Of a DNA stretch of 64,000 bases, positions 34,926 through 38,646 are shown piece after piece (the first letter of the stretch is position 1; every line of letters starts with the position of its first letter). Below the pieces are notes generated by a model that had not been told where the DNA came from, ran no database searches, and saw nothing but the letters and a program-made list of their open reading frames with translations. This stretch comes from Acidobacteriota bacterium (GTDB lineage Bacteria; Acidobacteriota; UBA6911; JACQSX01). Location: the NCBI GenBank assembly GCA_036507075.1, contig DASXQR010000088.1, positions 2,253-66,252 of the forward strand. Direction: 5' to 3'. A program made the translations under genes and the position numbers.

Positions 34926-35843
34926 TTGGTGGTAAAAAAATCTGAACCACCAAGACACCAAGTCAGGTTTCTACTAATGGCGGGATTCATTCTTTTGTGC
35001 GCGTTGATGGCGCAGTCGCAGAATCCGGGGTTGCCGTTTGAGACTTCGGCGCGGGGGGAGTTTCGCAGGGATATTGAGTTTGCAAATATCGGCGGCGTCA
35101 GTCTCACGCTCGATGCCTGGATTCCGGAAGGCGCGGGTCCTTTTCTATCCGTCATCGTGGTGCATGGCGGTGGATTCGTCAACGGCAACAAACAAACGTA
35201 CGTCAAGCCGCTGTTTGCCCCACTCGCCGATGCCGGATTTGTCTGGTTTACCATCAATTACCGCCTGGCTCCGCAGTACCGTTTCCCTGCCGCCGTTGAA
35301 GACGTGCATCGCGCCATTGAATTTGTAAAGATGCATGCCCGTGAGTTCAAGGCGGATCCGCATCGCCTGGCATTGGTGGGAGAATCGGCCGGGGGCTATC
35401 TTGTGTCCTATGCCTGCGCCGAAAACAAGCAGGATTCAAACGTCGCGGCTGTGGTCTCCTTTTACGGCCCGCACGATTTTGAGTCGCGCGCCCGAACCGA
35501 AGGAAAGCTGTCCGATTCGGCCAAGGCTTTCTTCGGCGTAACGGAACTGGATGCTTCGGCCTTTTCGGTATTGCGGAAGGTTTCCCCCATCAATCTGGTC
35601 AAGCGGGACACGCCGCCGTTCCTGCTGATCCATGGCACTCAGGATGCCCAGGTTTCGTATCAGCAGTCCGTGCTGATGTGCGAAAAGATTCGCAAGGCCG
35701 GCGGGCAGTGCGAACTCTACACGATCCAAGGCGCCGGGCACGGAGTGGGAGGCTGGGAAGACAAGCCGTATACGGGCGCCTATAAGCGCAAGATGGTGGA
35801 ATGGTTGCGGGAGACGCTGAGCGCGGCAAAGCCGAGGCATTGA
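34926..35843 (+). CDS. Alpha/beta hydrolase (HSL/BD-FAE-like esterase)
   Basis: VHGGGF, GESAGG nucleophile, HGTQDAQV, GAGHG; true start possibly 34977. Confidence 0.9.
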   Translation: MVVKKSEPPRHQVRFLLMAGFILLCALMAQSQNPGLPFETSARGEFRRDIEFANIGGVSLTLDAWIPEGAGPFLSVIVVHGGGFVNGNKQTYVKPLFAPLADAGFVWFTINYRLAPQYRFPAAVEDVHRAIEFVKMHAREFKADPHRLALVGESAGGYLVSYACAENKQDSNVAAVVSFYGPHDFESRARTEGKLSDSAKAFFGVTELDASAFSVLRKVSPINLVKRDTPPFLLIHGTQDAQVSYQQSVLMCEKIRKAGGQCELYTIQGAGHGVGGWEDKPYTGAYKRKMVEWLRETLSAAKPRH

Positions 35844-35893
35844 GAGTCACCAATTAATCACCACAAAGGCACCAAGGACACAAAGGAGGCACC

Positions 35894-36544
35894 ATGCACA
35901 AAGAGATTCTTGTGATGCGTTTTTTGCCGGCGCTGTTGCTTTCTTTTTGCCTCGCTCTGACGACGAGTACGGTTCCTGCGGCTGAAAAAATCGCCGCCTC
36001 TGCCGATGAAGTTTGCCCCCTGCTGATCGGCGCCAAAATTCCAAAAGTGATCTTTACGCGTGTGGATGGAACTCCCTTCGATCTGTCCGCTGCGGTCTCG
36101 CAGAAACCGGCTGTCTTGATTTTCTACCGCGGCGGCTGGTGACCGTACTGCAACAGGCAGTTGGGTCAACTGCAAAGCATTGAGCCGCAGATACTGGAAC
36201 TGGGATACCAAATCATCGCTGCCAGCACGGACCGTCCCGAGAAGTTAACACCGACCGCCGATAAGAATAAGTTGAAATACCAGCTTGTTTCCGACAACAC
36301 AATGGCCGGCGCCAAAGCTTTCGGGATCGCGTTTCAGGTGGACGCCAAGATGCTGCACAACGCTCCCCAGTTTAAGTCCATGCTGGAGGAATCCTCCGGC
36401 CTGCAGCACCATCTTCTTCCCGTTCCAGCCGTGTTTCTGATCGGCACAGACGGCGTCATCAGTTTTGAATACATCAATCCGGATTACAAAATCCGGCTGC
36501 ATCCCGATGTCCTGCTGGCGGCGGCCAGGGCTCTGAAAAAGTAA
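35894..36544 (+). CDS. Selenocysteine-containing AhpC/TSA peroxiredoxin-like protein (UxxC), exported
   Basis: ORFs 35894-36142 and 36161-36544 are one frame: FYRGGW-TGA-PYC; downstream LPVPAVFLI..G.I.F motif; SECIS-like hairpin follows. Confidence 0.9.
36140..36173 (+). promoter_or_regulatory. Bacterial SECIS-like element
   Basis: UGA at 36140-36142; stem GCAGTTG-GGT-CAACTGC at 36157-36173 with a G-leading loop 21 nt after the UGA. Confidence 0.8.
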
Positions 36545-36682
36545 TCTCTTCGTTGCGCGACGCTGACATTAATCAGCGTAGTTCGCGGAAATCGGCGGCT
36601 GGTTCTATCCGTGTTAATCCGCGGAAATCGGCGGCCAGTTCTCGGGTCGATCACCACAAAGACACAAAGGACACAAAGAGGA

Positions 36683-38449
36683 TTATTCCGTCCGCGTGTT
36701 CACAGCGTACGCGATCTTGCCGCCCAGAATCGTGGTCACAACTCGCGCCTTGGAGATTTCATCTTCAGGAATCGACAGAATATCTTTGGAGAGGACGGTG
36801 ATGTCCGCCAGTTTTCCAGGCTCCAGCGAGCCTTTGGTGCCTTCCTCAAAAGCAGCGTAGGCGGCACTGACCGTGTAGGAGCGCAGCGCCTGCTCGCGGC
36901 TCATGCGCTCCCCGGGGAAGAAATAAGAACCGTCACGCAGCCTGCGGGTCACCGAAGCGTAGAAGCACGCAATCGGATCGACGTCTTCCACGGGCGCGTC
37001 GGTTCCGTTGCTCACGACGGCCCCGGAACGGATCAGGCTCTGCCACACGTAGGCGCCTTCCCTGGCCCGCTTCTCTCCCAGACGCTTGACAACATAAGGG
37101 CCGTCTGAAGTGCAATGAATTCCCTGCATTGAAGCGATGACCTTGAGTTGCGCAAAACGCGGGATGTCGGCCGGGTGCAGGTGCTGGGCATGTTCCACGC
37201 GCCAGCGAAGATCCCCGGCACTTGCGTTCTTGAAGGCCTCCTGGAAGATATTCAGGGTTTCGCGGTTGGCGCGGTCTCCAATGGCGTGCACGCATAACTG
37301 AAAGCCGTGCTTGAGCGCCAGGCGCGCCGTTTCACGAATGACCGCAACGGGCGTTGTGTTCAGGCCAGTGCTGTCGGGGGCGTCCGAATAAGGCTCCAGG
37401 AGCCACGCTCCGCGTGGCCCGAGGGCGCCGTCGATGGCGTGCTTGATGGCGCGAACCGTGAGCCGTTTTTCCCCCAGATCTATGAGGCGGTAATCGGACA
37501 GCTTGCGGGCCAGTCCTTCGTTGCGTACACGGATCATCACCCAGAGCCGCATCCCCAGCTTGCCGTCCCGGGCAAGGCGTTTGAGGAGATCGATGGTCTC
37601 AAACGAAGATCCTGCATCCTGGAAACTGGTGACACCCTTGGACAGGCATTCTTTTGTCGCCAGTTCTACAGCCCGCAGTTCTTCGGCTTCCCTGTCGCCG
37701 GCGGACAAACGATCCCGGCTATTCGACTGGGCCTGTCGCACTAATCCCTGGCCGGTTTCGCGCAGCATGCCCGTGGGCTCGCCGCTGGCGTCGCGCAGGA
37801 TTTCGCCGCCGGGAGGGTTGCGCGTGTTCCGTGTGATTCCGGCAAGCTCCATCGCCTTGGCGTTGGCGAATGCAGCGTGACCGCTGGCGTGCGTCAACAG
37901 CACCGGATTTTGCGGAGCGGCCCTGCTCAGGGATTGATGAGTGGGGAAACCTTCAACATTCGGCTGCGGGACCCGATCCCACTTTTCCTGATGCCATCCG
38001 CGACCCAGAATCCATTGGCCCGGCTGCGCCTTGCCGGCCGCCTGGCCGACCATGGCCACGATCTCATCCCAGTTTTTAACCTGCATCAGGTCGAGCATCA
38101 TCTTCGACTGCCCCAGGCCGAGGAAGTGCCCGTGGCCTTCGATGAATCCCGGAATTGCCAGCTTGCCTGACAAATCGGTAACCCTGGTGGACGGGCCTAT
38201 GAGTTTTCGAATTTCTGCATTGCTGCCGACAGCAATGAGGACCTCGCCCCGGGCAGCCAGCGCCTCGGCTTGTGGTTGCTTCGGGTTCATGGTCACAATC
38301 TTCCCGTTCACCAGAACCAGATCGGCCGCGCGTTCCGGTGACTGGGCGAGATTATTGTTAAGAGCACCGGGCGTCCCGATTCGCGCGGTACAATGAAGCC
38401 CCGACAGGACGATCAGGACAAGCGCAAGGATACGGCCGCATAGCTTCAT
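36683..38449 (-). CDS. YtcJ-like amidohydrolase (Amidohydro_3)
   Basis: PGFIEGHGH, DGALG.RGA, HAIGDRAN, RVEHAQ, GTDAPVE, GSLEPGKLAD. Confidence 0.93.
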   Translation of the reverse strand: MKLCGRILALVLIVLSGLHCTARIGTPGALNNNLAQSPERAADLVLVNGKIVTMNPKQPQAEALAARGEVLIAVGSNAEIRKLIGPSTRVTDLSGKLAIPGFIEGHGHFLGLGQSKMMLDLMQVKNWDEIVAMVGQAAGKAQPGQWILGRGWHQEKWDRVPQPNVEGFPTHQSLSRAAPQNPVLLTHASGHAAFANAKAMELAGITRNTRNPPGGEILRDASGEPTGMLRETGQGLVRQAQSNSRDRLSAGDREAEELRAVELATKECLSKGVTSFQDAGSSFETIDLLKRLARDGKLGMRLWVMIRVRNEGLARKLSDYRLIDLGEKRLTVRAIKHAIDGALGPRGAWLLEPYSDAPDSTGLNTTPVAVIRETARLALKHGFQLCVHAIGDRANRETLNIFQEAFKNASAGDLRWRVEHAQHLHPADIPRFAQLKVIASMQGIHCTSDGPYVVKRLGEKRAREGAYVWQSLIRSGAVVSNGTDAPVEDVDPIACFYASVTRRLRDGSYFFPGERMSREQALRSYTVSAAYAAFEEGTKGSLEPGKLADITVLSKDILSIPEDEISKARVVTTILGGKIAYAVNTRTE

Positions 38450-38527
38450 GGGATGGCTCCGTGGAAGAGAAAAACTTACCATCTTTGCGGCCTTTGTGGT
38501 GAAAGATCTTGAACCACAAAGGCACAA

Positions 38528-38646
38528 CGCGGCAGAGCCGCAACCAAACGCGTCATCGGTCATCAGTCATTCGTCATTAGTGTCATTAGTCATTCGTCAT
38601 TAGTTAGAGAATCTTGCTAAAAAAACAAGAAATCGCCAACAGGTTA
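38528..38646 (+). mobile_element. Fixed-frame element with GTCATYR heptamer core, flanked by CACAA direct repeats
   Basis: CGCGGCAGAGCCGCAACCAAA...AACAAGAAATCGCCAACAGGTTA; CACAA at 38523-38527 and 38647-38651. Confidence 0.75.

Follow-up and report, generated by a model that had tools for sequence, protein, structure and literature searches.

The 64,000-nucleotide stretch analyzed here (hereafter the window; positions 2253-66252 of contig C88 in an Acidobacteriota genome assembly of 6.1 Mb, 233 contigs and 95.7% completeness) carries two open reading frames (ORFs), one of 82 aa at 35894-36142 and one of 127 aa at 36161-36544, between an alpha/beta hydrolase gene (34926-35843, + strand) and an amidohydrolase gene (36683-38563, - strand). 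Both ORFs lie in one frame, and the sole stop between them is a TGA at 36140-36142. The initial annotation had read this arrangement as a single selenoprotein gene split by the ORF caller, and the frame does indeed continue across the TGA into a 216-aa read-through product. When the TGA is read as selenocysteine (Sec, U), the protein contains the segment ...LIFYRGGW-U-PYCNRQLGQL..., in which the TGA occupies the first Cys position of a WCPYC redox motif (residue 83). We are highly confident that 35894-36544 is one intact gene whose UGA at 36140 is decoded as Sec, and that it encodes a 216-residue, probably exported, thioredoxin-fold protein resembling peroxiredoxins (Prx) of the AhpC/TSA type. 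Its features are as follows.

35894..36544, + strand: whole coding sequence, 216 codons plus TAA, with a single in-frame UGA (Sec83)
35883..35889, + strand: Shine-Dalgarno-like AAGGAGG, 4 nt ahead of the ATG at 35894, read directly from the sequence
35894..35980, + strand: signal-peptide-like N-terminus, residues 1-29 (MHKEILVMR, hydrophobic core, VPA/AE), with a predicted cleavage site
36140..36142, + strand: UGA read as Sec83, first position of the UxxC redox motif
36149..36151, + strand: TGC, Cys86, the second redox residue, aligned with the peroxidatic Cys of Bcp and with the second Cys of the ResA CxxC
36157..36173, + strand: hairpin of the Sec insertion sequence (SECIS), a 7-bp stem (36157-36163 with 36167-36173) and a GGU triloop (36164-36166), encoding Q-L-G-Q-L
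36407..36427, + strand: family-invariant motif H172-H173-x-L-P176-V-P178, with P178 at the position of the Prx catalytic Arg and of the ResA Pro

The conserved domain runs straight across the TGA. The Pfam AhpC-TSA model (PF00578) matches residues 45-190 at 81.8 bits against a cut-off of 26 (E 5.2e-23), and the Pfam Redoxin match (E 1e-16), which extends to residue 197, likewise spans the TGA. Of this locus, the public protein collection has no more than a C-terminal piece of 127 residues (P0002); it also includes a second 127-residue fragment, 90% identical, that comes from elsewhere (P0016). Since TGA also serves as the ordinary terminator of 8 of the 27 long ORFs in the window, the standard code is in use. 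A promoter/terminator scan returned no promoter-like site, and its one terminator-like site, within the coding sequence, was at chance level.

The Sec machinery, whose presence the initial annotation had named as the first check, is complete in this genome: selA (529 bits, cut-off 268), selB (380 bits, cut-off 242), selD (347 bits, cut-off 125) and a tRNA-Sec (Rfam, 71.7 bits, cut-off 47) all score above their curated cut-offs. The tRNA, which ARAGORN also calls SeC with anticodon UCA, combines a long variable arm with an acceptor stem of 8 bp and a discriminator G (G73) followed by CCA, and it is the only one of 44 tRNAs found by ARAGORN in the whole assembly to carry a stop anticodon. In-frame TGA codons were also detected in six further genes of known selenoprotein families, namely a TxxU peroxiredoxin (FTGG[U]T) and an SxxU protein (NSPG[U]T), both AhpC/TSA; FdhA (ARV[U]HGP); two CxxU CMD/AhpD-like proteins (CEY[U] and CHY[U]); and SelD. 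These genes lie at C218:266-637(-), C187:4254-4622(+), C157:4797-5819(-), C83:45064-45312(-), C127:25801-25971(-) and C59:4836-5753(+). They come from family searches, which were used because our own genome-wide selenoprotein scan (478 candidates, 58 after filtering) was noisy and missed selD. Rdx/SelW was not found with PF10262 in this 95.7% complete assembly.

The TGA is also conserved among relatives. A search of 61 genomes of the same class, including that of the window (E<=1e-10), gave 23 matches in 20 genomes; each contained exactly one TGA, and in 23 of 23 it fell in the column W-U-[PA]-x-C. In a sample of 251 genomes from the phylum (E<=1e-25), 14 of 18 matches carried the TGA (38-100% identity), while the four stop-free ones were the most distant (33-36% identity); 7 of the 18 matching genomes overlap with the same-class search. 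Every match of at least 38% identity in the sampled genomes has the TGA. Each of the multi-genome analyses includes one row, L033, from the unpublished genome G015, and no conclusion rests on it.

Homologs with Cys at the same position are abundant. At E<=1e-5, 4206 full-length database proteins were recovered, the top matches being 49-62% identical, and in 22 aligned full-length homologs the invariant residues included Y78, R79, G80, W82, C/U83, C86, H172, H173, P176, P178 and R201. All 22 read WC-x-[YF]-C at the motif, in agreement with the WCPYC originally expected for this subfamily. At the nucleotide level, where locus retrieval took the best 80 of 524 confirmed stretches, the codon in question was TGA in 38, TGT in 36 and TGC in 30 of 104 motif-bearing genes (103 loci). 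The proposed alignment of homologs therefore returned Cys or TGA at exactly this codon, although the 38:66 ratio of Sec to Cys forms is not a frequency, since Cys was a requirement in one of the two patterns used for retrieval. The named sources of Sec forms are Acidobacteriota, Desulfuromonadales, Chloroflexi, Fibrobacteraceae, Krumholzibacteriia, Zixiibacteriota and a metagenome-assembled genome (MAG) labeled 'Deltaproteobacteria'. One Desulfuromonadales MAG (L062) carries two Sec genes close together, one of a cytoplasmic GVWUPYC...ELEAL type and one of a GGWUPYC...QLGEL type.

A quick maximum-likelihood tree was built from 101 distinct domain sequences, after removal of three rows that were exact duplicates. 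On it, the Sec/Cys label required at least 7 changes, compared to a mean of about 30 when labels were shuffled (0 of 500 shuffles were as low), while well-supported branches force only 1 change. The gene of the window falls in a seven-member, all-Sec clade of its own class (Shimodaira-Hasegawa-like approximate likelihood ratio test, SH-aLRT, 93).

Downstream of the UGA, a 7-bp stem starts at nt 18 (counted from the UGA) and is closed by a GGU loop. This is exactly the hairpin GCAGTTG-GGT-CAACTGC pointed out at the start, at 36157-36173 and with 21 nt from the UGA to the loop, and its geometry fits the description of bacterial SECIS elements outlined in PMC1088965, in which the UGA is closely followed by a stem-loop whose small apical loop includes a G. 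We analyzed covariation in an ungapped alignment of 20 genes over the 45 nt from the UGA, pairing columns 18-24 with 28-34. The helix was paired in 97.1% of cells, and both sides had changed in 5 of the 7 pairs, e.g., UUG/CAA to CUG/CAG to CUC/GAG. Cells with double changes numbered 22, compared to 6.4 in shuffles, and the covariation score was 0.442, compared to 0.143, with 0 of 500 shuffles reaching the observed values. When the partner strand was slid by 1-3 columns, pairing dropped to 11-46%. Taken alone, the 61-nt stretch folds only modestly better than its shuffled versions, 5 of 200 of which fold as well (z -2.46).

A different candidate, the structure of lowest free energy for nt 36140-36200 (UGACC/GGUCA plus CUGC/GCAG), was rejected as the conserved element: it was paired in 79.5%, and its covariation did not exceed that of shuffles. 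An Rfam scan of 35700-36750 gave only a chance snoRNA-like match (E 0.18), with no bacterial SECIS family in its output.

Since the hairpin lies within coding sequence (Q-L-G-Q-L), the Cys forms are the decisive control. Six or more of the 7 pairs were present in 32 of 38 Sec forms but in only 6 of 66 Cys forms, and all 7 in 26 of 38 compared to 1 of 66. The mean local free energy was -9.5 kcal/mol for Sec forms and -3.0 kcal/mol for Cys forms. When only genes encoding Q-L-x-x-L were considered, the difference persisted, with at least 6 pairs in 30 of 32 Sec forms and 3 of 18 Cys forms. In the Sec forms that bear the hairpin, the loop starts with G in 36 of 36 and reads GGN in 30. The encoded peptide differs too: at the sixth residue after the redox residue, Sec forms (n = 38) have Gln (33) or Glu (5), whereas Cys forms (n = 66) have His (40), Gln (25) or Tyr (1), a bias consistent with the CAG codon of the hairpin constraining the peptide. 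Together, these comparisons show that selection acts on the RNA of the hairpin after the UGA, which in turn limits the peptide it encodes, with the Sec and Cys forms providing a clean natural control.

The same design recurs elsewhere in this genome. Three of the six other Sec genes have a 7-9 bp stem and a GGC or GGA triloop that starts 20-26 nt after the UGA, namely GGCAUAUCA-GGC-UGAUAUGCC (stem from nt 18), CCGCUUC-GGC-GAAGCGG (from nt 17) and ACGGGGA-GGA-UCUCCGU (from nt 14). The strongest hairpin of selD begins only 3 nt after its UGA, making this gene an uninformative comparator, and the second AhpC/TSA gene (at C187) showed no clear hairpin of matching design.

The TGA itself was found in independent assemblies. 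Five soil-metagenome runs carry the stretch, one of which may be its source; no RNA run is among the runs listed. Contigs of two runs from other samples and studies, X2 (35850-36154 and 36125-36600) and X4 (35990-36168), cover 36140-36142 and leave it unchanged; their only variant is an A>G at 36106 (AAA to AAG, both Lys), which is synonymous. Both runs thus show TGA, and not the TGC or TGT that the initial annotation had envisaged as a sign of sequencing error or mutation. In contigs of all four soil runs, depth rises 20- to 60-fold at window positions 36110-36161, over the ~40 nt encoding YRGGW-UGA-PYCN, which indicates that many other soil organisms have near-identical sequence at the motif.

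At the N-terminus, MHKEILVMR-FLPALLLSFCLALTT-STVPA/AE shows by eye a charged start, a hydrophobic core and small residues at -3 and -1, and a hydrophobic 12-mer scores 2.44. These features are compatible with the signal peptide proposed at the outset, and export itself stays at the level of a prediction. Of the Sec forms, 27 of 38 also have a hydrophobic N-terminal 12-mer ahead of the domain, as do 61 of 66 Cys forms; the cytoplasmic subgroup and a UPHC/UPFC subgroup are among the Sec forms that lack it. A signal peptide of the general secretory pathway is therefore plausible, and the protein would be exported, as judged from sequence and model.

We then turn to the fold. A model of the read-through protein gives a single thioredoxin-fold domain (mean predicted local distance difference test score, pLDDT, 88.5; predicted template modeling score, pTM, 0.81), in which residues 1-30 have low pLDDT with a lone helix at 7-23 that stands detached from the domain, a helix at 84-102 starts right after residue 83, and an extra helical insert occupies 151-168. 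The nearest solved structures by both sequence and fold are Bcp/PrxQ peroxiredoxins (3hjp, Foldseek E 2e-12, template modeling score 0.89 on target; 2cx3, profile E 1.8e-14), with ResA-type proteins close behind. Typical peroxiredoxins are defined by a PxxxT/SxxC active-site motif and a conserved catalytic Arg. Neither is found here: when FFPAAFSPVC of Bcp is aligned with FYRGGW[U]PYC, the Prx Pro corresponds to Arg79, the Ser/Thr to Sec83 and the peroxidatic Cys to Cys86, and when K-R-AVFIV is aligned with V-P-AVFLI, the catalytic Arg corresponds to Pro178, so that Cys86 is the only one of these residues kept in the Bcp alignments. G-T-W-C-K-P-C and L-P-TSFLI of ResA align instead with G-G-W-U-P-Y-C and V-P-AVFLI, and Pro178 may, by analogy with ResA, be a cis-proline. 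Since the Prx triad is replaced and the motif and Pro align with those of ResA, the protein appears to combine a peroxiredoxin fold with an active site arranged as in thioredoxin-like CxxC oxidoreductases. No NCBIfam model reached its cut-off (thiol peroxidase, 45.1 of 140 bits; SelL-related, 40.4 of 120; ResA, 27.6 of 170; TlpA, 15.7 of 230). The alignments thus point most likely to a periplasmic selenol/thiol oxidoreductase and not to a classical peroxiredoxin.

Following the established bacterial pathway, the GGU-capped 7-bp hairpin, 17 nt after the UGA, would bind SelB carrying Sec-tRNA(Sec), the charged tRNA being made by SelD, SelA and tRNA-Sec, all of which the genome encodes, and Sec would then be inserted at the UGA in place of termination. 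The N-terminal signal peptide would direct the protein across the inner membrane. There, Sec83, at the N-terminus of helix 84-102, would act as the attacking nucleophile, and Sec83 and Cys86 may cycle between selenol/thiol and selenenylsulfide in the manner of the CxxC of ResA/TlpA-type oxidoreductases.

Several observations weigh against this account of an exported Sec oxidoreductase. For the 61 nt of the window itself, the structure of lowest free energy differs from the covarying hairpin. Among the 38 Sec forms, L062b and L121 form just 5 of the 7 pairs when read in this register, whereas four others use a register moved by one base; these four are the cytoplasmic subgroup, ...WUPYCN-x-ELEAL, with an 8-9 bp hairpin. 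Conversely, the Cys form L051 (a Sedimentisphaerales MAG, TGC) retains 7 of 7 pairs, which makes the hairpin an imperfect diagnostic sign; this gene also retains the QLGQL peptide, and a recent switch from Sec to Cys would fit. Two relatives look damaged: L034 (genome G013) has TAG in place of the Trp codon immediately 5' of the TGA, and L035 (genome G049) has a stop 20 codons 5' of the TGA and lacks the N-terminal third. Both have a perfect 7-bp hairpin, and they may be recent pseudogenes or assembly errors. Finally, the signal peptide was judged only by eye, hydrophobicity and model, the preference for an oxidoreductase over a peroxidase comes from alignment positions, and we infer the selenium in the protein from its gene sequence.

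That the TGA is a true stop, whether in a pseudogene, through an assembly or sequencing error, or between two separate genes, would fit the way in which gene callers split the locus, the lone C-terminal piece P0002 in the database and the two damaged relatives. However, the TGA is kept in 38 genes, some of which belong to other named phyla, and is flanked both 5' and 3' by open frame and conserved residues; it recurs in contigs of two other runs that differ by one synonymous change, and it would break midway a thioredoxin-fold domain that is modeled as a single unit; we regard a true stop as extremely improbable. Read-through by an ordinary residue, through a suppressor, a tRNA-Sec look-alike (selC* tRNA-Cys or an allo-tRNA) or a near-cognate Trp or Cys tRNA, is slightly less improbable. 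In 37 of 38 Sec forms the base after the UGA is C, and UGA-C is a weak stop context. According to PMC5389517, some bacteria have look-alikes that read UGA as Cys, the Cys-inserting selC* tRNA-Cys carrying U73, and unusual allo-tRNAs are present in Acidobacteria. The only tRNA with a stop anticodon found here has G73 instead, with the proviso that a tRNA could have been missed in a 95.7% complete assembly; selA and selD are far above their cut-offs; and the covarying hairpin after the UGA is what SelB requires, whereas plain read-through has no need of it. Such read-through is thus very improbable, and with machinery, conservation and covariation all supporting the 216-aa Sec redox protein first proposed, a genuine Sec codon at 36140 is very likely.

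The choice between oxidoreductase and peroxidase is less clear-cut. A genuine selenoprotein could work as a periplasmic peroxidase, in which the Sec83 selenol (or Cys86) reduces hydroperoxides directly, as in Sec-peroxiredoxins and glutathione peroxidases. Selenols react fast with peroxides, Bcp/PrxQ proteins are the closest solved structures by sequence and fold, Cys86 aligns with the peroxidatic Cys, and some loci adjoin genes for an Fe/Mn superoxide dismutase (L036), a CMD/AhpD-like protein (L047) or flavin mononucleotide (FMN) reductases (L049 and L051); pyridine-nucleotide disulfide oxidoreductases are also among these scattered redox neighbors. In contrast, the replacement of three Prx catalytic residues (Arg79, Sec83, Pro178), the alignment of motif and Pro with the CxxC and Pro of ResA, and the absence of a recurrent partner gene among 81 flanking ORFs of 41 homologous loci all speak against a peroxidase, as does the family site, described in PMC1088965 as thioredoxin-like UxxC instead of TxxU. 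We therefore consider a peroxidase possible but unlikely, and, given that the gene is real, the alignments make an oxidoreductase the probable function.

The gene lies between two direct 29-nt CACAAAGG-type repeat copies (93% identical), 793 nt apart.

35857..35885, + strand: 29-nt CACAAAGG-type repeat copy 5' of the gene, repeat family D1, whose continuation supplies the Shine-Dalgarno sequence
36650..36678, + strand: second 29-nt CACAAAGG-type repeat copy (93%) 3' of the gene

Copies of CACAAAGG itself occur at 35862-35869 and 35879-35886, and the Shine-Dalgarno-like AAGGAGG (35883-35889) overlaps the latter, so the origin of this site in the end of a repeat arm, as initially noticed, holds. 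It is incidental, however, since AGG plus a start codon follows just 2 of 797 CACAAAGG copies. The octamer is found 14 times in the window (2.0 expected, 0 of 100 shuffles) and 797 times in the genome, compared to 176 expected from base composition and to a mean of 243 and a maximum of 570 for shuffled 8-mers; most copies stand in short tandem arrays and have CAC, ACA or GCA as the next letters. A depth spike at 35850-35901 marks a CACAAAGG repeat stretch common to many other soil-metagenome contigs. Between the convergent genes, the 3' flank also holds a 28-nt direct repeat (TA.T.CGCGGAAATCGGCGGC..GTTCT), with 86% identical copies at 36579-36606 and 36615-36642, 36 nt apart.

Among known selenoproteins, the gene fits the published Prx-like UxxC family (representative WP_010940744.1), as judged by domain and motif description. 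In Table 1 of a 2026 review of the prokaryotic selenoproteome (PMC13188914), a 'Prx-like thiol:disulfide oxidoreductase, PF00578, UxxC/UxxU' is listed as a high-confidence predicted family, along with a 'Redoxin family protein, PF08534, UxxC' and a 'Peroxiredoxin-like family protein, cd02970, UxxS'. A Sargasso Sea study describes 22 Prx-like Sec sequences with a thioredoxin-like UxxC (PMC1088965), and an account in PMC1794560 gives 8 Prx-like genes in genomes with 3 inferred Cys-to-Sec events, and 3 selenoprotein families in Acidobacteria. As far as these descriptions go, our gene shares with the Prx-like selenoprotein family the AhpC/TSA domain, UxxC rather than TxxU, the existence of Cys homologs and a SECIS hairpin that closely follows the UGA, but the window's clade differs in its predicted signal peptide and invariant HH-x-LPVP; the main text of PMC13188914 contains neither 'signal peptide' nor 'Acidobacteri' (0 occurrences each).

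The full-length Cys homologs (49-62% identity) share the signal-like N-terminus and the FYRGGW-x-PYC, HH-x-LPVP and NP-x-Y-x-R motifs, but have TGT or TGC for Sec, mostly lack the hairpin, and most commonly have His at +6. The Bcp/PrxQ proteins (3hjp, 2cx3, 5epf) are closest in fold and sequence, with their peroxidatic Cys at Cys86, but their Pro, Thr/Ser and Arg are replaced by Arg79, Sec83 and Pro178, and the window's protein adds the insert at 151-168 and a putative signal peptide. ResA/TlpA-type proteins (4nmu, 1su9), which are among the top fold matches, are exported thioredoxin folds, as is predicted for the window's protein, with W-C-x-x-C aligned one-to-one with W-U-P-Y-C and a Pro before a beta-strand aligned with P178; similarity to their models is low (ResA 27.6 of 170 bits, TlpA 15.7 of 230), however, and no cytochrome-maturation genes were seen nearby. 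The SelL-related redox proteins (NF040769) also belong to the PRX-like group and match weakly over residues 49-205, but at 40.4 bits, compared to a cut-off of 120, the protein is not a member.

The selenoprotein family has been known since 2004, and the gene is an unannotated member of it, so the result is an annotation fix and not a discovery, and general knowledge of selenoproteins is unchanged. Gene callers had cut it into 82-aa and 127-aa fragments, only the C-terminal one of which reached the public collection; as a consequence, this soil bacterium is under-counted in both its redox capacity and its selenium dependence. More speculatively, and with considerable doubt, the exported WUPYC clade might represent a periplasmic selenium-based redox system that is fixed as Sec across the class and much of the phylum in soil Acidobacteriota, and whose SECIS element has reshaped the protein, the CAG codon swapping His for Gln on the helix after the active site. 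Since known selenoprotein families account for at least 7 genes with a TGA in this genome, selenium likely matters for the oxidative-stress and periplasmic redox biology of the organism.

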